A stretch of DNA of 63,261 nt, filler included, from Stramenopiles sp. TOSAG23-2 (lineage: Eukaryota): assembly GCA_900128395.1 (NCBI GenBank). It is 8 parts of 8 records of this genome, joined end to end, with 100 filler letters (N's around TTAATTAATTAA, not from the genome) between each part and the next. Parts side by side here need not be neighbours in the genome. Positions count along the whole stretch, not along the records: positions 26,739 to 53,349 come from LT649430.1; 7 more parts are not named here. One strand, given 5' to 3'. A program made the translations under genes and the position numbers. Below, piece by piece: positions 25,026 through 53,926 of the stretch. How positions within the stretch are numbered: position 1 is the first letter of the stretch; each line of letters starts with the position of its first letter. A model generated the notes under the pieces. It had not been told where the DNA came from and made no database searches. It saw nothing but the letters and a program-made list of their open reading frames with translations.

Positions 25026-26237
25026 ATGAAAATATTATACATCATTTTATTTTGTGTATATATTAGCTTTGCGCTCGCGGCGGAATGGGACTGCTCTACG
25101 ACGAGTGGCGTTTTCACACAGTCAACGAACTGTACAGTGAGTAGCGTAGTCGCCATTAAAGACTCTACATCATTAAAGATTACTGGCATCCCAGACGTGA
25201 ACGGCGTAATGCCAAAAATTATCGGCGCTGTAGGGTTAAAACGCTTGTTCATAGTGGAGGGTGGTGGGAAGCTGATTCTGAATGGTTTGAACCTAACTGC
25301 AGGAATTGAGGTTAGGGTTGATTTTTTTTGTAGTGATGGTCCTGGAGGTGTTTGTTATGACGGTTCTTTAGCTGGTTATGATGCAAGTACAAATGGCAAT
25401 ACTACCGACTCCTCGTATCTAGCTGCTTTGAGTGGTTTTAAACACCCACTCGCCCGAAATTATACTGGATGGCAAGATTATTGTAAAAGTTGGAGTGCGA
25501 ACGATGGAACATTTAATGGAGGTTTGGGGACATGCAAGACAAAAATGTATCTTATCAATGTAGAGCAAGCAGTTATAGACGACTCGAAGGGTGCAAGTCA
25601 AAACTGCAGCAACTCCCCCACCCAATGTGAAGAAAATGGGTACTATGGCGGTTGCATTACACGTCAAAACACCGACGCAGGTGTGATGTGTTCCCACAAC
25701 TGTTCAATTGGTACCCACAAAAGTGGAATATTTAATCATAAATGCGCAGCATGTATAGATGGAACCTATAATCCTTCATGGAATCAAAACCAATGCCAAT
25801 CGTGGTCCGATTGTTCCACCGGCCAGTATATCTCTACCGATGGCACAAACAGCTCTGACCGTGTATGTAGTAGCTGTGGGTCCGGGAAATATTCTGCATT
25901 AACTAACGCATTTGCATGCGCAAATTGGACAGACTGTGTAGCAGGTCAGAAAAGAACAGCATCTGGTACTGCTATTGCTGATCATACATGCGTAGTATGT
26001 CCTACTGGAAAATTTTCTACCACATCTAACCAGAACACTTGCACCGATTGGACAACATGTAATGCTACCACAGTCGAGATTAATGCTGGTTCTACTACAG
26101 CAGACAGAGTCTGTGGTCCTACAAGCGCAACAACTACAGCATCACCAACACTGGATGACCTAGGTAGTATGGGTAGTTGTATTCGACCAACATTGTATAC
26201 AACAATATTTTTCATTGCATGGAGTGTCTTGCAATAG
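25026..26237 (+). CDS. Cys-rich cell-surface protein (TNFR/ephrin-receptor-like repeats), probable GPI anchor
   Basis: Signal peptide, repeated CxxCxxGxY/F...C..W..C..G...G....D..C units, Thr-rich stalk and hydrophobic C-terminus. Confidence 0.8.
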   Translation: MKILYIILFCVYISFALAAEWDCSTTSGVFTQSTNCTVSSVVAIKDSTSLKITGIPDVNGVMPKIIGAVGLKRLFIVEGGGKLILNGLNLTAGIEVRVDFFCSDGPGGVCYDGSLAGYDASTNGNTTDSSYLAALSGFKHPLARNYTGWQDYCKSWSANDGTFNGGLGTCKTKMYLINVEQAVIDDSKGASQNCSNSPTQCEENGYYGGCITRQNTDAGVMCSHNCSIGTHKSGIFNHKCAACIDGTYNPSWNQNQCQSWSDCSTGQYISTDGTNSSDRVCSSCGSGKYSALTNAFACANWTDCVAGQKRTASGTAIADHTCVVCPTGKFSTTSNQNTCTDWTTCNATTVEINAGSTTADRVCGPTSATTTASPTLDDLGSMGSCIRPTLYTTIFFIAWSVLQ

Positions 26238-26638: not shown

Positions 26639-26738
26639 NNNNNNNNNNNNNNNNNNNNNNNNNNNNNNNNNNNNNNNNNNNNTTAATTAATTAANNNNNN
26701 NNNNNNNNNNNNNNNNNNNNNNNNNNNNNNNNNNNNNN
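26639..26738. other. Artificial contig linker (N44-TTAATTAATTAA-N44)
   Basis: Identical linkers occur at 53350-53449, 55003-55102, 56655-56754, 58307-58406, 59959-60058 and 61611-61710. Contig sizes fall monotonically (26638, 26611, 1553, 1552 x4, 1551). Confidence 0.98.
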
Positions 26739-29680: not shown

Positions 29681-30202
29681 TCTAAAATGGTAAATAATTT
29701 GTAATATAATAAAATATTTAGTATGTAATTTTATAAATGAAAATGATATGTAAATCCATTTGTGGAGTGTAAATATATATATATATTGATGGAAATGGAC
29801 TTGGATTAAATGCAAATCCAATTATTTTCATTTTTCATCAGCAAAAATCATCATCATCGAGGCAAGGAAAATCAGACTAAAAGTTACTAGCCTGTAATAG
29901 CATTGTAAAACCTTAAAAATACCCTGATTTTACTCAAAATAGAAGCCACACAGCACTAAATCTAGCGAGAGAAGAAGAAGAACTTTTTTTTTTGATGATG
30001 ATGATGAAGAAAAAATAAATATTTTTTTTATTATATTATTAAAATATTATTTAAAGAAATAAATTAATAAAAAAATTAAAATGAATTTATTTGTGTTGGG
30101 ATTATTTATTATATTTATTTTTGGCAACAACATTAACATAATCAATAACTATACACATCCATATCATCAATACCAAATCAGTCAAAATAATTGACTCCAC
30201 CG

Positions 30203-30937
30203 ATGTCAACGAATAATATAGTGCGTATCATCAATACCAAACCAGTCAAAATAATTGATTCCAACATCGCAGCTGGTTTAGCAAAAACAACAGGTTGGAA
30301 AACATGGGGTTCCGCATTAGTAGCTGGAAAATTTTTATCCCTTGATGAAAACAAACTTTTTATTAAGAATAAAATGGTGTTAGATTTAAGTAGTGGTAAC
30401 GGAGTTGTGGCATTGATATGTGCAGCTTTGGATGCAAAGCAAGTAGTTGCGACAGAATGTAAAACATGTATGAAAATATTGGAAACAAATATTGAATTTA
30501 ATATAGAAGATGATAGTAAATGGTTGACAACAGATAAAATATGTGTAAAAGAATGTAATTGGGGTGAGAAAATTATTGATGAAGCAATAATAAATGTGGA
30601 ATACGATTTAATTATATTATCTGATTTAGTATTTATAGCAGTTCGTGATTCTATAATGGATGAATTTATCAATACTATATTACAAATTGTAAAATCACCA
30701 AAAACAAAAATATTATTAATTTATGAAGAAAGAATTTTAGAAGGTGAGGAAGAATTTTTAAATATATTGAAAAGATACTTTACTTTGAAAATGATTGAAC
30801 TTGATACGGAATTGTTAGATTGGTTGGATAATCCAAGAAGTAGTAATGACGACGATGACGTAGGAGGTATTGGAGGTTTATTTTATGAAAAGCCAGGAAT
30901 TAAAATTTTTATATGTAGTTTGAAAATAAAAAACTAA
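30203..30937 (+). CDS. Seven-beta-strand protein-lysine methyltransferase (METTL21/Methyltransf_16 family)
   Basis: TGWKTWGSAL, motif I VLDLSSGNG, CNWGE and DLIILSDLVF; first ATG at 30203. Confidence 0.85.
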   Translation: MSTNNIVRIINTKPVKIIDSNIAAGLAKTTGWKTWGSALVAGKFLSLDENKLFIKNKMVLDLSSGNGVVALICAALDAKQVVATECKTCMKILETNIEFNIEDDSKWLTTDKICVKECNWGEKIIDEAIINVEYDLIILSDLVFIAVRDSIMDEFINTILQIVKSPKTKILLIYEERILEGEEEFLNILKRYFTLKMIELDTELLDWLDNPRSSNDDDDVGGIGGLFYEKPGIKIFICSLKIKN

Positions 30938-33734: not shown

Positions 33735-33848
33735 ATTCAGATAGGTAGTGAAAGTATACAAAATGGTCATGCTATTCTACCACAATTTTGCCCTAAATTG
33801 TGGTAGAATAGCACGACCATCTTATATACTTTCACTACCTATCTGAAT
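33735..33848. repeat. 114-bp inverted repeat (54-bp arms, 6-nt loop, 3 mismatches)
   Basis: Arms 33735-33788 and 33795-33848 are reverse complements; followed by a 23-bp tandem duplication at 33863-33908. Confidence 0.95.
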
Positions 33849-34462
33849 AACAGGGGATTTCCACGATGACTAGACTCTGGTTAAGACGATGACTAGAATC
33901 TGGTTAAGGGAAATAAATAATTTATATCACTTAACCATGTAATATGTAACAATATTACCTGTATGGTATGTCAGAAATCCGATAGTGAGGTACATGGTTT
34001 GTTAATGCTATTTCAAGCCTATTAATTTGACATACTTTACTATGTATCTTAATATTAGGATATTCTCATACTAAATTCATCATAAAAAATTGATATTTTG
34101 GGATTATAATAAATGTATTGCTTACCGTATGTATTGAAACTTGGCACTTTTTTGATAGAAAATCATCAAAGTTTGTCTCTATGAATGCAAATTTTAAGTA
34201 TACTAAAAATTTCGTTCAAGTACATCATTAATTTTAGAAATTACCCTTTTAGATTATGCGTTTTTATGAAACTAACCATGTTTTATTTTATATAAGTACT
34301 ATTTTCTAATAATCTTCCATGCTTTTGTAGCCCTATATAAAAAAGTATTTTGGAAAAAAAGATAAATTACAAAATTTTGTGTAAAATCGTTTTAAATAGG
34401 GACTGTATTAGTACAGTAATTGTATACTTAGTAAAACTAGAAAAAATTACCACAACATGTGC

Positions 34463-35507
34463 TGTATTACCTTGAAAAACAGGTACAAGAAAATGAAATG
34501 CAGTATTGCTTAAACTGTAACTTTGCATAGCGATTGCCTACAAGGCTACAAATTCAACCAAATGAAAGCTCTAAGTCATGGCTTTCATGTACTGCATGGT
34601 TGTAACTATGTAATATTAAATACGTACGACAAGATGCAATCAAACATTGAAATAATTTTATTTTGCGTTTGAATGATGAAAAGCGGATTGTATTACCTTG
34701 AAAAACAGGTACAAGAAAATGAAATGCAGTATTGCTTAAACTGTAACTTTGCATAGCGATTGCCTACAAGGCTACAAATTCAACCAAATGAAAGCTCTAA
34801 GTCATGGCTTTCATGTACTGCATGGTTGTAACTATGTAATATTAAATACGTACGACAAGATGCAATCAAACATTGAAATAATTTTATTTTGCGTTTGAAT
34901 GATGAAAAGCGGATTGTATTACCTTGAAAAACAGGTACAAGAAAATGAAATGCAGTATTGCTTAAACTGTAACTTTGCATAGCGATTGTGTACAAGGCTA
35001 AAAATTCGACCAAATGAAAGCTTTTAGTCATGGCTATCATGTGCTACATGGTTGTAACTATGTAAAATTAAATACTGTACGTCAAGATGCAATCAAATAT
35101 TGAAATAATTTTATATTGCCTTTGAATGATAAAAAGGGGATTGTATTACCATTAAAACGGGTAAAAGAAAATGAAATGGAATATTGCGTGAACAATAACT
35201 TTGCATAGCGATTGTCTATAAGGCTACAAATTCGACGAAATGCAAGCTCTAAGTCATGGCTTTCACGTACTTTATGGTTGTAAATAGGCCATATTAAATA
35301 CTGTACGTCAAGATACAATCAAACATTGAAATAATTGTATTTTGCGTTTGAATGATCAAAAGGGGATTGTATTACCTTGAAAAACGGGGAAAAGAAAATG
35401 AAATGCAATATTGCTTGAACTGTGACTTTGCGTAGCAATTGTGTATACGGCTACAAATTCGACGAAATGCAAGCAATTGTGTATAAGGCTACAAATTCGA
35501 CGAAATG
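34463..35507. repeat. 226-bp tandem satellite, about 4.5 copies
   Basis: Unit starts at 34463, 34689, 34915, 35142 and 35368; the first two copies look identical and later copies diverge. Confidence 0.95.
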
Positions 35508-35544
35508 GAAGGGAGGGACGTTGATCATATAAACAGGTTAAAGG

Positions 35545-35554
35545 AAAAAAAAAA
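35545..35554 (-). terminator. Putative RNA polymerase III terminator (T10) for the tRNA-Met gene
   Basis: A10 on the + strand is T10 on the - strand, about 25 nt downstream of the discriminator base. Confidence 0.65.
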
Positions 35555-35578
35555 TTTGAGATGTGCGGTTATGCACAT

Positions 35579-35858
35579 TGCCTCCGGCGGGGCTCGAACC
35601 CGCGCTTTATTTTGAGAAGGAAATTTAATGTTAATTTCTTGTCGTTTTCCGATTTTCCTTAAATTTTCACTTACACCTTTGGATTATGAGCTAATGATAT
35701 TTACTTGTTAATTGTTGTTCTTCCTACAAATTGTTCGTACTTGTTAACTTACACCAACGCTCTACCAACTGACTGTATATTTTAATTTAAGGGAGTTTTG
35801 TTAGAGAATAATTTTGGGTATCACATTTTTTTGTACAATTGACTTACGCCACGGAGAC
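35579..35858 (-). tRNA. Elongator tRNA-Met(CAT) interrupted by three spliceosomal-type (GT-AG) introns
   Basis: Exons 35858-35848, 35772-35753, 35690-35675 and 35604-35579 join to GTCTCCG TG GCTC AGTTGGTA GAGC G TTGGT CTCATAA TCCAA AGGTC GCGGG TTCGAGC CCCGC CGGAGGC A, a 73-nt full cloverleaf. All three introns start GTAAGT, contain YTAAC and end in AG. Confidence 0.92.
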
Positions 35859-36257
35859 AGGAGTGAAAACTCCTGTTTCTGATCGCTATTGTTCACTGTT
35901 ACTAAAATTTGTGAAATTTTACGTATATATAATAAATTATTAATTTCATAATTGTGTAATGATACTTACATCGTAATTTTTCATGTACAACGTAGTAGAA
36001 AGATAGCACTGCCACTGAAAATATTTTGAAGACTTATTTTTTTGAACAGATGTGCAGTTGTGGAATAGCAGGAGTTGCAATAATATATATACCAGTAGTA
36101 TATACACACAGACAACAAATATAAAAAAAATATTTACGTCTGTATGTGCCATAGACAATTACAATTGATTATATATGATACAAACAATACAAACGTTACT
36201 AACACACGCACACAACTTACGAATCAACGCGTATATATATATATAGTACAATAAACA

Positions 36258-36779
36258 ATGTCGACAACTCCATCAACATCGTCACCAACTTCAATTATTA
36301 CAATGTCTACCGCAAAATTAATAAACCAACGTCATAAAAACAACCGTCCGCATCATCATCAACATCATGCATATACTTGTCCAAAAAAACTTAATTGTCC
36401 ACAGCCTAAAAATAATAATATTACGGATATAAACACAAATACCACTTTTGATATTCTATCAAAATGGTATATCGATGGTGAATTAGAAATTAAACAAAAC
36501 TTACATGAACATGAAAAATCTGAATTAATTGAAGAGATTCGACAGTTGGAACAAAAGAATCATGATATAATAAAAAGTAAAAAATTAACGGAGAAAAAAT
36601 TAATTGAATATATACATTCCTTAGAAACAAAAGTAGGAACTTTAGAAAATGATAAAAGAAAGTTACAAACAACCATTCAAAATTTGGAAAAGAGTTTATT
36701 AGGAGAAAATGATTGGTACGAGGAAGAACATGCACTTGATAATGCTTTAATTACTTTTACAAATGGATTGAAAAAGTGA
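36258..36779 (+). CDS. Hypothetical coiled-coil protein
   Basis: 173-aa ORF with a low-complexity N-terminus and heptad-rich C-terminal half. Confidence 0.65.
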   Translation: MSTTPSTSSPTSIITMSTAKLINQRHKNNRPHHHQHHAYTCPKKLNCPQPKNNNITDINTNTTFDILSKWYIDGELEIKQNLHEHEKSELIEEIRQLEQKNHDIIKSKKLTEKKLIEYIHSLETKVGTLENDKRKLQTTIQNLEKSLLGENDWYEEEHALDNALITFTNGLKK

Positions 36780-37933
36780 AAATCCTGCCAAAATCCTGCA
36801 CCGTGTTGGTGGAAGAAAATCCTGCACCGTGTTTGTGGAACGTAGTGTTGCACCGTGTTTGTGGAACGTAGTGTTGCACCGTGTTTGTGGAACGTAGTGT
36901 TGCATATATGATGTATGTTAACTTATTTAAAAACCTGCACCGTGTTTGTGGAACGTATTGTATTCTGGGTATGCATATAATGTTAACTTATTTAAAAACC
37001 TGCACCGTGTTTGTGGAACGTATTGTATTCTGAGTATGCATATAATGTTAACTTATTTAAAAACCTGCACCGTGTTTGTAGAACGTAGTAGTATTCTAAG
37101 TATTCATGTATGTTAAAACTTATTCTTTTGAGAATATGTCATATAGTCTAGGAATTTCAAAGAACTTTTAAAAAATTACGAGTCATACTTGTAAAAAAAT
37201 ACAAACACGTTTGTATACGCGCGTATTTTATTGACATACATTTTACATTTTGACCAAGACTAGAAAATAAAACAAGGTTAAAATTATATATATATACACA
37301 TGTACAACGTTCGTAACACATAAAATATGCTTTTTCGTAAATTTTAAATTAATGTAAATATATGATATGACATATATATTGATAATATCATACACGTTCT
37401 AATAAATTATTAAATACACACTCGCTCTCAAATACACTACTCGTTCCCACAAACACGGCAATACAGGGTTTTCATCGTTCCACCAAACCTCTGGCTCACT
37501 AAATCGTTACAGGATTTTCACGTTCCACAAACACAGTGGTGCAGGATTTTCATAAGTTAACATACATTATATATGCAACACTACGTTCCACAAACACGGT
37601 GCAACACTACGTTCCACAAACACACGGTGCAGGATTTTCTTCCACAAACATATATGCAACACTACGTTCCACAAACACGGTGCAACACTACGTTCCACAA
37701 ACACGGTGCAGGATTTTCTTCCATTTTCACACGGTGCAGGATTTTCTTCCACAAACACGGTGCAGGATTTTCTTCCACAAACACGGTGCAGGATTTTTGT
37801 GTTGCAGGATTTTTGTGTTGCAGGATTTTTGCAGGATTTTCATCGTTCCACAAACTCTGGTATGTACAAAATACACACTTCGTTCCACCAACACGGTGCA
37901 GGATTTTCTTCCACCAACACGGTGCAGGATTTT
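36779..37933. repeat. Foldback-like structure: two inverted arrays of ~26-27-bp subrepeats (TGCACCGTGTTTGTGGAA core)
   Basis: Left array ~36779-37090 (+), right array ~37440-37933 (reverse complement); 36790-36833 is the exact reverse complement of 37890-37933 (44 bp). Confidence 0.9.
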
Positions 37934-39416
37934 ACACCGACATGGCTGAATTTAATAAATTTTTACCTTCCTCTGCTTTTGTTTCCAATTCTGCTGGTTT
38001 CATCATTGTTCCTCTTGCTTTTATTATAGGTGGACGTTTTGAATGATAACTAGGTGAATGTTGACGTGCTGGTGGTTTCATTGGTGGCATACCCATTGGT
38101 GTTTCAGGCGGTGCTACTTCACCATTATCCATAACTACTTGGCGTTTTGATGGACGTTTTGGTGGTGCTACACGTTTTTTTGGTGGTGGTTTAGCACCAG
38201 CACTATTACTACCAGATGGTTTAACACCACGTGGTTTCACAGGTGGTGGTTTCTTTGGTGCATTCCCACCAACAACAGCTTGTGCTATCGCTACGTCTTC
38301 TTTCTTCTCTTCATCGTTATTATTTGCAACAGCATTTGGATTTCTTGGTGGTGGTTTTGGATGTTTTGGTGCAGCATTTTTTTGATTACCACGTGGTGGT
38401 GGTTTTGCTAATTTTGCATTTGAGATCACCGTAACATTTGCATCTCCATTTACTTTATCAGTTTCTTTTGCTTTTGATGATCTCCAATCGACTTTTGCGG
38501 AATCTAATAGTAAACTCGCAGGTGTTTGATATCTTGCCATTCGAAATGGACCATTTGGACGTCTACTTTTTTGGATTACATTGGCATTTTTATGGGTATG
38601 GTATTTACGACGTAAACCACCAAAAAATCCCAAGGATCGCTTATTTCTTTGAACTACACTTGATCTAACTTGTTGATTATTATTATTAGTATTACTACCA
38701 TCCGCCATACCTTTATAATACTCATCCGTATCATTAATAAAACCTTTGATATCGGCCACGACATCGATAATTTCGCAATTTTTTTGCAACGATACACTGC
38801 GATTTCCCATTGATACTAAATCGTTCCTATGCATTTTCGTCATCTTTTGTAAATACGATTTCGATCGTTTTAAACGTGCCTCTTCAACTGTTTGTAAATT
38901 TTCTAATATTTCATCCATCGATTCTTTATGCCTGAATTGCACTTCGTTTAACCTTTTAATTTTTGTATATATAATCATTCGTACAAAATGTTAGTATTGT
39001 ATGTTTGTATGTATGTATGTATATATCGATATGTGTGGAAAGGTAAGGAAATCTATCTTTCTATAAGAATGCAGGTAAGAATGTCGGCCAACCTTGGGCA
39101 GGTTACTCGCGGCCAACCTTGGGCAGGTAGGTACTAAGAATGTAGGTAAGAATGTCGGCCAACCTTGGGCAGGTTATTCGCCGGCCAACCTTGGGCAGGT
39201 AGGTACTAACCTTTTAATTTTTGTGAAATGTTGCTGATCTAACATTTTCGTCTTTGCAACCGTTTTCTCCATTTTTGCTGCTAACTTTGCCTTTACTTCT
39301 GGTTTTAAATCGCCAGCACTTAATTTAGTCACAAGTTTTTCCGCAGCCTTTTAATTTTTGTAGATATAATCATTAGTGCAAAATGTTAGTATTGTATGTT
39401 TGTATATGTATGTATG

Positions 39417-39448
<32 letters not shown>

Positions 39449-40391
39449 GAAAGGTAAGGAAATCTATCTTTCGCATAGGCAATTAAAAATGCCTTGGGCA
39501 GGTAGGTATGTCGGCCAACCTTGGGCAGGTTATTCGGCAGGTAGGTATGTCGGCCAACCTTGGGCAGGTTATTCGGCAGGTAGGTATGTCGGCCAACCTT
39601 GGGCAGGTTATTCGGCAGGTAGGTATGTCGGCCAACCTTGGGCAGGTTATTCGGCAGGTAGGTATGTCGGCCAACCTTGGGCAGGTTATTCGGCAGGTAG
39701 GTATGTCGGCCAACCTTGGGCAGGTTATTCGGCAGGTAGGTATGTCGGCCAACCTTGGGCAGGTTATTCGGCAGGTAGGTATGTCGGCCAACCTTGGGCA
39801 GGTTATTCGGCAGGTTATTCGCCGGCCAACCTTGGGCAGGCAGGTATGTTGGCCAACCTTAGGCAGGTTACCTACAAGTTTTGCAGCATCAAATTTATTT
39901 TTTGATTTCAATGCCTCATCCATTGCATCACCAAGTTCTTTTTCCACAGCAGCTGCTTGCTCAGCAATTTTTCGTTTAATAATAGTTTGCGTATGTTTTA
40001 ATTGTATTAAATTATTACTCAATCCTTTCAACTCTTTTGTAGATGTTAATACTTCTTTACATTCTTCTAAAAGCGATTTTTTCATGGCATTCCATGCAAG
40101 CTCCAGGGTCGAACCTTTTTCACTTTCAGGTAGTATATGTCCTTTTGAAATTTCACCTAATCTATATGCATATGCTTCTTTTGCTTCTGCTAATGTATCA
40201 ATTGCAGATGCAATTACTTTTAACGAGAATTTTCCATCCCAACTACGTTCCATGCAATCAACATATCCATTTCCATAATTAATTGCTCGGTACCCTTCCT
40301 CTGCCGGGATCATTAAGCCAGCCGACATCCAATCCATATTATTTGCAGGTACAGTTGTTGCAGGTGTTGATTCTTTTTTTTTTTTCGACAT
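37932..40391 (-). CDS. F-BAR-like coiled-coil protein with Pro-rich C-terminus, 3 exons
   Basis: Exons 40391-39876, 39347-39211, 38952-37932. Introns 39875-39348 (GTAGGT..CTAAC..AAG) and 39210-38953 (GTTAGT..CTAAC..AAG) give a continuous frame (..DAAKL|AAEKL..TKIK|RLNEVQ..). EAYAYRL..GSTLELAW resembles an FCH/F-BAR signature. Confidence 0.8.
39502..39813. repeat. 39-bp minisatellite, 8 perfect copies, inside intron 1 of the F-BAR-like gene
   Basis: Unit GTAGGTATGTCGGCCAACCTTGGGCAGGTTATTCGGCAG; degenerate copies flank it and also occur in intron 2 (39070-39205). Confidence 0.97.
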
Positions 40392-53349: not shown

Positions 53350-53926
53350 NNNNNNNNNNNNNNNNNNNNNNNNNNNNNNNNNNNNNNNNNNNNTTAATTA
53401 ATTAANNNNNNNNNNNNNNNNNNNNNNNNNNNNNNNNNNNNNNNNNNNNTTAGAGTAGAGAAGAAAAGTGTTGTTGTGAGTGAGTGAGTCAGGATGGAGT
53501 GAGTGAGTAAGTCTTTGACACATTAAAGAGAAATTAAAATACTGGGCCAGTAATATTAACAGGGTCACAGGGTCTTTCCGGGAGATGGGGGTTTTATGTT
53601 TTCTTTCGACATCTCCTTCAAAAAATTTTTTAGCATCTTAGCTTTTTTAGAGAGTTTTAGAGTTTTTGACACACATTTTTATAAAATATTTCGTAATATA
53701 ATTAAAATAATTACACTGGAGGTACGCGTACGTAATTGTTTCTCTGTTTTTAGGAAAAAAATCAACACACCCCGACAAAATTAAATATCTCTACTCCAGC
53801 ATTTCCCCCACATATTACGAAGTTTGTAACATTTTTTTTAAACTCTTTATTTCTGCTTTTAATGCATCAATTTCCTTTACCAAACGAGCATTATTATCAT
53901 CTTTTTCTTGTTCTTTAATGCCCCCT

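Follow-up and report, generated by a model that had tools for sequence, protein, structure and literature searches.

The element described here is a transfer RNA (tRNA) gene that is interrupted by three inserts bearing the signals of spliceosomal introns. It lies on the minus strand, at positions 35858–35579, of a 63,261-nucleotide (nt) stretch of DNA from Stramenopiles sp. TOSAG23-2 (assembly GCA_900128395.1), made of eight records joined end to end; "the window" denotes this whole stretch. When the three inserts are removed, the locus yields a complete tRNA-Met with a CAT anticodon, and a comparison with relatives found in metagenomes indicates that the exons are conserved while the introns have diverged. 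In our view the locus is likely to be a functional nuclear gene that encodes elongator tRNA-Met(CAU), whose maturation would depend on the spliceosome.

A tRNA-Met gene in four exons

The locus consists of four GC-rich pieces separated by three AT-rich inserts (Table 1). Joining the exons by their coordinates in a script gives a sequence of 73 nt with 61.6% G+C, which ARAGORN calls as tRNA-Met(CAT) and draws as a cloverleaf with a 7-base-pair (bp) acceptor stem containing one G-U pair, a 4-bp D stem, and 5-bp anticodon and T stems. Positions 31 and 39 are opposed as U-U, the T loop reads TTCGA, the discriminator is A, and nothing in the drawing is degenerate. It has G1-C72 rather than A1-U72, carries T54, and at its foot the anticodon stem lacks three consecutive G-C pairs. 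From these features, together with U31-U39, we take the product to be an elongator and not an initiator tRNA-Met. Sequential numbering of the spliced 73-mer equals standard tRNA numbering, and insert positions are given in this numbering throughout. An earlier note on this DNA had listed the exon and intron coordinates and lengths, the GTAAGT..CTAAC/TTAAC..AG signals of each insert, the insertion points 11/12, 31/32 and 47/48, and a 73-nt cloverleaf with CAT anticodon, U31-U39, TTCGA and discriminator A. We reproduced the coordinates, lengths and insertion points and the signals of all three inserts, and the structure drawn by ARAGORN is the same.

In its genomic form the gene escapes standard finders, as that note had expected. 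ARAGORN reported no tRNA on the unspliced window, and Rfam found no tRNA at E ≤ 10 within 34500–37000 and nothing at the gathering score across the whole window. GTAAGT is scarce in the window. To estimate chance occurrence, splice chains were built by removing up to four GT[AG][AT]GT..YTRAY..AG candidates per chain. The 420 chains of the window gave ARAGORN tRNA calls only at the tRNA-Met locus (six overlapping variants), and the 8,607 chains from 20 block-shuffled windows gave no tRNA call at all. The spliced tRNA at this locus is far beyond chance, and the observation of a split tRNA-Met gene is confirmed. When one border was moved by 1–3 nt, ARAGORN still called a tRNA in 29 of 36 versions, and none of the four combinations in which intron 1 was retained was called. 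Because ARAGORN tolerates shifted borders, it establishes the tRNA and not the junctions.

Table 1. Coordinates of the split tRNA-Met gene, its flanking elements and the filler between the joined records, as positions in the window.
Feature	Position	Strand	Length	Insertion point	Structure and signals	Relatives
Upstream block	35883–35936	−	~55 nt		Candidate promoter or start-site region; TATA-type TATATATA at 35931–35924 (−73 to −66)	
5' leader hairpin	35857–35876	−			8 bp, 4-nt loop; 3' arm ends in tRNA positions 1–2	
Exon 1	35848–35858	−	11 nt		Acceptor 5' strand, positions 8–9, D-stem bases 1–2	Contiguous with exon 2 in L022
Intron 1	35773–35847	−	75 nt	11/12	GTAAGT; CTCTAACAA box 28 nt before 3' end; CAG	Absent in L022
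Exon 2	35753–35772	−	20 nt		Remaining D arm, position 26, anticodon-stem 5' strand	Identical in L018 and L022
Intron 2	35691–35752	−	62 nt	31/32	GTAAGT; AATTAACAA box 17 nt before 3' end; TAG	56/62 identical in L018; absent in L022
Exon 3	35675–35690	−	16 nt		Anticodon loop with CAT, anticodon-stem 3' strand, variable positions 44–47	
Intron 3	35605–35674	−	70 nt	47/48	GTAAGT; AATTAACAT box 26 nt before 3' end; AAG	Position also occupied in L018, L022 and L012
Exon 4	35579–35604	−	26 nt		Position 48, whole T arm with intact B-box-like GGTTCGAGCC, acceptor 3' strand, discriminator A	
3' trailer hairpin	35561–35578	−			Directly after discriminator; 6 bp in window, 6-nt loop	5 bp shared
T10 run	35545–35554	−			Candidate RNA polymerase III terminator	T10 at matching place in L022
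Linkers	26639–26738; 53350–53449; from 55003, 56655, 58307, 59959 and 61611		100 nt each		Filler; last six parts 1,552 nt each	

Relatives in metagenome contigs

Metagenome contigs were scanned with a pattern consisting of a CAT anticodon loop, five free bases, AGGT and GTAAGT, which requires the intron to be present. The scan returned 38 loci, of which 34 had no tRNA context and three were split tRNA-Met loci, referred to as L022, L018 and L012. The last one, L010, was rejected as an ordinary organelle-type tRNA whose T stem merely begins with GTAAGT. The same pattern gave 12 chance matches in 596 gigabases of prokaryotic genomes, none with tRNA context, and a single chance match in a viral collection, which was not tRNA-like.

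L022 is a contig of 1,209 nt with 31.6% G+C. At its far end it aligns, with 86% identity, to the beginning of the methyltransferase gene (window positions 30127–30244), although the relative orientation differs, and it is an orthologue in the same neighbourhood. Exons 1–3 form one unbroken stretch of 47 nt in L022, equal to the GT/AG joins of the window except at position 6, and because they are uninterrupted there, junctions 1 and 2 of the window are fixed exactly. The single intron of L022, 79 nt long and located at 47/48, reads GTAAGT..TATTAACAA..TAG; after its removal ARAGORN calls tRNA-Met(CAT). As a separate matter of annotation, the Rfam tRNA model scores 34.9 bits against a gathering threshold of 29 at L022 350–419, with the start of the intron aligned as a false T arm, and in routine annotation the locus would appear as a wrong, pseudogene-like tRNA.

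The exons of the window and L022 are identical at 71 of 73 positions, and the two differences pair up: C6-G67 in the window corresponds to A6-U67 in L022, a compensatory change in the acceptor stem. By comparison, the shared intron 3 is identical at 51/83 positions (61%), where shuffled sequences gave 52 ± 3% with a maximum of 60%, and the flanks at 37/70 (leader) and 50/94 (downstream). The exons differ from intron 3, leader and downstream sequence in identity with Fisher p values of 1e-8 to 1e-11 each, and the only conserved parts of intron 3 are donor, branch box and acceptor. Exons this similar, next to an intron and flanks near the shuffled level, argue for strong purifying selection on the exons for tRNA structure. 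Conserved exons with divergent introns were what the earlier note had suggested looking for in relatives; L022 has both, and the compensatory acceptor change in addition.

L018 is a partial copy comprising exon 2, intron 2, exon 3, intron 3 (58/75 identical) and exon 4. Its exons 2–4 match the window at 61 of 62 positions and have T67, the state seen in L022. Since L018 carries introns 2 and 3 independently, the multi-intron form is not an assembly artefact of the window. Exon 2 of L018 seems to start one base before that of the window, and exon 1 lies off the contig. Beyond ~225 nt the contig encodes bacterial-type DAO/GCV_T and MttB proteins at 47% GC; it is most likely an assembly chimera, and only the first ~225 nt were used. 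An 11-nt string from the tRNA 3' end recurs at the join with the bacterial part (L018 178–3247).

L012 has a more divergent tRNA-Met 5' part, in which the 28:42 pair is changed on both sides relative to the window, followed by a 77-nt intron at 47/48 (GTAAGT..TATTAACAT..CAG) and the 5' strand of the T stem. Beyond the 5' T-stem strand, neither the remainder of the T arm nor the acceptor 3' strand can be recognised; the one match there is degenerate, rich in G-U and has an oversized T loop, and we did not count L012 as a gene. L012 therefore supports the age of the 47/48 intron position and not its function. Judging from these sequences, the 47/48 intron is old: relatives have it too, and it occurs in at least three sequence lineages. 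Introns 1 and 2 would be either later gains in the lineage of the window or losses in that of L022.

These comparisons bear on the possibility that the locus is a dead or dying relic, disabled by intron-like insertions, while an intronless gene supplies elongator tRNA-Met. Such a relic could have its A-box region split, as intron 1 does here, and L012, with the same 47/48 intron and no proper 3' part, could be a pseudogene of this kind. A relic, however, would not be expected to keep its exons at 71/73 while intron and flanks fall to or near the shuffled level, to restore an acceptor pair with its sole two exon changes, to have perfect splice signals in seven of seven introns, to preserve a leader hairpin through four double changes (both described below), or to retain the 47/48 intron in at least three sequence lineages. 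We regard the relic explanation as improbable.

Intron signals and removal machinery

All seven tRNA introns (three in the window, two in L018 and one each in L022 and L012) begin with a perfect GTAAGT donor, complementary to U1, contain (C/T)TAACA 17–31 nt before the 3' end, and end in CAG, TAG or AAG. Beyond donor, branch box and AG they have little in common. The earlier note had claimed that the introns of argJ messenger RNA (mRNA) share these signals, and both do, having GTAAGT or GTACGT, CTAACA and AG: one reads GTACGT..CTCTAACAC..CAG and the other GTAAGT..TGCTAACAT..TAG. The two argJ introns, 79 and 115 nt long against 62–79 nt for the tRNA introns, are the validated mRNA introns in this comparison; 14 other candidates lay in repetitive coding sequence and were discarded as false positives. 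Because donor, branch box and AG are the sole conserved parts of the tRNA introns, the spliceosome is the only machinery for which the sequence argues, and we infer that it removes them.

The introns could instead be removed by a protein endonuclease and ligase of the tRNA splicing endonuclease (TSEN) type, dependent on bulge-helix-bulge (BHB) motifs, or by another non-spliceosomal activity, with the GT..AG ends being incidental. This route serves all previously described nuclear tRNA introns, multiple and ectopic ones included, in the available text of a review of disrupted tRNA genes (PMC3978253). When the three junction pairs were scanned for BHB motifs, introns 1 and 3 gave none and intron 2 gave two weak 4-bp helices containing G-U, against a chance expectation of ~1.6 for random cut pairs. 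Thus, for the TSEN/BHB alternative that the earlier note had itself raised, there is no motif above chance at any junction pair. The eukaryotic endonuclease follows a ruler mechanism that directs it to 37/38, and positions 11/12, 31/32 and 47/48 do not fit it. In addition, the seven introns share only spliceosome signals, the same as those of the argJ mRNA introns. Removal by TSEN or a similar enzyme is consequently very improbable, and the spliceosome is retained as the presumed machinery. An introner or transposon origin of the introns was also considered and rejected, as the window holds no further intron copies and the introns have no meaningful mutual likeness, a weak test given that it covers 63 kilobases only.

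Flanking elements and transcription

The gene is framed by conserved elements on both sides. L022 (331–351) retains the leader hairpin with every pair intact, and in four of the eight both partners differ from the window; just 0.14% of window sites mark the end of a perfect 8-bp hairpin. Nothing like this hairpin occurs in ordinary tRNA genes. Our guess is that it might delay formation of the acceptor stem, or 5' processing, until splicing is done. On the other side, the core of the trailer hairpin is identical in sequence in L022, and the T10 run follows 25 nt beyond the tRNA 3' end; 1.7% of random sites have a run of T ≥ 8 within 48 nt downstream. The upstream block aligns with L022 far better than the introns do, whereas the stretch between block and hairpin does not.

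Type 2 genes of RNA polymerase III (Pol III), to which tRNA genes belong, have an internal A box and B box. Base composition was examined as a possible signature of this polymerase. The six introns of the AT-rich lineage have an A:T ratio of ~2:1 and no T run above 3, compared with both argJ introns, in which T4 is present and A roughly equals T. No T4 occurs from −7 to the T10 run, yet 6.6% of random 318-nt windows also lack TTTT. Avoidance of T runs was rejected as proof of Pol III, being underpowered with two validated mRNA introns only. Three further observations speak against Pol III: TTTT is present at −11 to −8, in the loop of the leader hairpin; the remnant of intron 1 in L018 contains T5; and intron 1 splits the A-box region in the window, although this region is contiguous in L022. 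Nevertheless, the conserved TATA block, the T-poor introns, and the conserved trailer hairpin with T10 favour Pol III, and we lean towards transcription by this enzyme from the upstream TATA block to the hairpin and T10. An upstream promoter combined with a T-run terminator would explain why an intron inside the A-box region is tolerated. The spliced Pol III transcript of U6 in fission yeast offers an analogy (PMC5855946, in the text available). Transcription of the split gene by RNA polymerase II (Pol II) is possible, and we hold it with less confidence; the tRNA-Sec of Trypanosoma brucei, reported as a Pol II transcript in the available part of PMC2943599, is a precedent for a tRNA not made by Pol III, although it has no introns.

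A fourth intron candidate, GTAAGT..TTTTAG at 35969–35902 (−), upstream of the tRNA, was rejected since L022 reads GTTTAT at the donor. A short reading frame starting with ATG precedes this candidate.

The same flanks allow another interpretation, in which the locus is a tRNA-like module within a spliced non-coding Pol II transcript and has a use other than decoding, for instance as a mascRNA-type 3'-end or localisation element. Spliceosomal introns normally reside in Pol II transcripts, a conserved TATA block lies upstream, the conserved leader and trailer hairpins are foreign to ordinary tRNA genes, and the 35969–35902 candidate would add a GTAAGT..TAG intron upstream. But L022 lacks that candidate, a T10 run lies behind the gene in both species, and the spliced product shows every standard feature of an elongator tRNA-Met, CAT loop and T loop among them. 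We find a non-decoding role unlikely and continue to favour a tRNA-Met gene that serves translation.

Genomic surroundings

The tRNA-Met contig (LT649430.1) spans 26739–53349. Within the window the joined records are separated by linkers composed of 44 N, TTAATTAATTAA and 44 N, with stops in all six frames (100 nt each). The genome sequence has ~31% G+C and is gene-dense and intron-poor. Proteins encoded in the window are ordinary eukaryotic ones, among them IleRS, a PPEF-type phosphatase, ArgJ, ADA2 and an alpha-galactosidase. IleRS has marine relatives at 94, 73 and 72% identity, and its best named relatives, at 55–59%, are mostly stramenopiles (oomycetes, a bicosoecid and brown algae). On the evidence of IleRS the host stands closest to stramenopiles, and we describe it only as marine, stramenopile-like and under-sampled.

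Genes neighbouring the tRNA were found in 20 runs from 10 studies, mostly seawater metatranscriptomes prepared from polyadenylated RNA. For the region 35000–39200, four runs from four studies were compared (X1, X2, X4 and X10), and RNA contigs from all four cover an open reading frame (ORF) near the tRNA, at 37932–38978. None of the contigs falls on the tRNA locus itself (35579–35858), a result that is neutral, because contigs from polyadenylated RNA would not reveal a small RNA lacking a poly(A) tail. RNA contigs from three of the four (X2, X4 and X10) also fit ~35935–35986, a stretch of ~50 nt that is AT-rich. They were set aside: all have the same continuation, which is unlike the window, and another locus or organism is the probable source. 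Allowing up to 3 mismatches, the window has no match to a 20-nt motif of this continuation. All four runs show an accumulation of short RNA contigs at 37679–37819.

Several repeats lie close to the gene. A 226-bp tandem repeat (4.5 copies, 91% matches) and a 38-bp repeat occupy 34463–35511, beginning ~70 nt downstream of the tRNA; the 226-bp repeat is absent from L022, where the methyltransferase gene follows after ~600 nt. At ~33750–33850 (−), in an AT-rich, gene-free stretch between the tRNA and methyltransferase genes, there is a long, near-perfect inverted repeat with arms of ~45 nt and a short spacer, possibly a small mobile element or the trace of one. At 36797–37116 and 37569–37933 there are arrays of a 26-nt unit (TGCACCGTGTTTGTGGAAC...), in opposite orientations around ~37.2–37.5 kilobases, and a 39-bp unit is repeated 8.8 times with 98% identity at 39497–39840, inside overlapping ORFs on both strands. 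Elsewhere in the window, the ORF at 25026–26237 (+) encodes two cysteine-rich repeats of the TNFR/NGFR type (PF00020, E = 2.6e-10), which are unusual outside animals.

Discussion

The anatomy of the gene, its relatives and the BHB test are all favourable to the interpretation given in the earlier note, which is supported: a nuclear elongator tRNA-Met gene that probably works and that would need the spliceosome for its maturation. In the proposed pathway, the primary transcript would carry three U2-type GT-AG introns. Only once the spliceosome had excised them could the D arm, anticodon arm and variable/T junction fold; RNase P, RNase Z and CCA addition would then complete the ends, the steps presumably taking place in this order.

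Several points weigh against this interpretation. Splicing, CCA addition and aminoacylation are predictions from the DNA sequence. An intronless gene for elongator tRNA-Met may do the real work, and the metagenome scan, requiring an intron, is blind to one. At 20 and 16 nt, the internal exons leave the spliceosome very little length on which to assemble. Complete genes number two only, those of the window and L022, and L012 may be a pseudogene.

Full-text literature searches, which covered few subscription journals and excluded supplements, found no description of spliceosomal introns in a tRNA gene; they likewise turned up nothing at odds with the view of the earlier note that spliceosome-dependent tRNA maturation had not been described. 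The closest parallel is provided by small nuclear RNA (snRNA) genes. According to the available text of PMC5855946, mRNA-type introns are known in U6, U2, U5 and U1 snRNA genes and in ribosomal RNA (rRNA) genes, and tRNA genes are not listed there. The same source bears out the statement of the earlier note that some fungal snRNA genes have spliceosomal introns: in U6 of Schizosaccharomyces pombe, and in U6, U2, U1 and U5 of Rhodotorula hasegawae, GT-AG introns with mRNA signals interrupt a small structured RNA, as they do here. U6 is transcribed by Pol III yet spliced by the spliceosome, has upstream elements and a B box, and varies among species in the presence of the intron (PMC5855946, as far as the text was available). 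Unlike U6, the tRNA has no known contact with the catalytic centre of the spliceosome, so the idea of reverse splicing by proximity, put forward for snRNA genes, is not obviously applicable. A further difference from the snRNA cases is the density of introns, three in 73 nt, leaving exons of 11–26 nt.

Several introns per tRNA gene are, as such, not without precedent. In the portions available of PMC3728597, PMC9602550 and PMC3978253, the tRNA genes of Cyanidioschyzon merolae, nucleomorphs and archaea are likewise described as having multiple introns, located in the D arm, the anticodon arm and the variable/T region, and as being missed by standard finders. Those introns, however, form bulge-helix-bulge motifs and are removed by the tRNA splicing endonuclease, in contrast to the GTAAGT..TTAACA..AG introns described here, which have no BHB. 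The review among these sources treats BHB introns only, within its available text (PMC3978253), and a paper from 2025 presents spliceosomal and tRNA introns as unrelated classes in the part accessible to us (PMC12530127). With the canonical intron at 37/38, which is processed by TSEN and tRNA ligase, the present introns share the need for removal in the nucleus before the tRNA can function, whereas position, number, signals and presumed machinery are all different. Spliceosomal introns have reportedly been described in rRNA genes of ascomycetes by Bhattacharya et al. in 2000. As would hold here, the gene concerned is not transcribed by Pol II; unlike here, the host is an rRNA made by RNA polymerase I.

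Taken together, the following picture can be offered tentatively, as a joint proposal on which we would not insist. The spliceosome would be obligatory for tRNA maturation in this lineage; the 47/48 intron would be ancient and clade-wide, and tRNA introns would still be being gained, two of them in the lineage of the window; and other tRNAs would be hidden in the same manner. Pol III would start from an upstream TATA-type promoter with no need for a contiguous A box, splicing would proceed without coupling to Pol II, and the leader hairpin, by sequestering positions 1–2, would delay the acceptor stem and end processing until the introns are gone.

Textbooks and current reviews keep spliceosomal and tRNA introns apart, as unrelated classes served by different machines. 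If the proposed dependence on the spliceosome is correct, it would add to TSEN/BHB, group I and group II a fourth way in which tRNA introns are removed, and the gene would follow U6 as the second class of transcript, probably made by Pol III, on which the spliceosome acts. The case would also imply that spliceosomal introns can be gained in an RNA of 73 nt that is not tied to the spliceosome's active site, which bears on models of intron gain. ARAGORN and Rfam do not see split tRNA genes of this type, or mis-call them when a single intron is present, as in L022. Counts of tRNA genes in under-sampled protists may therefore be too low, and tRNAs regarded as "missing" are possibly hidden in their genomes.

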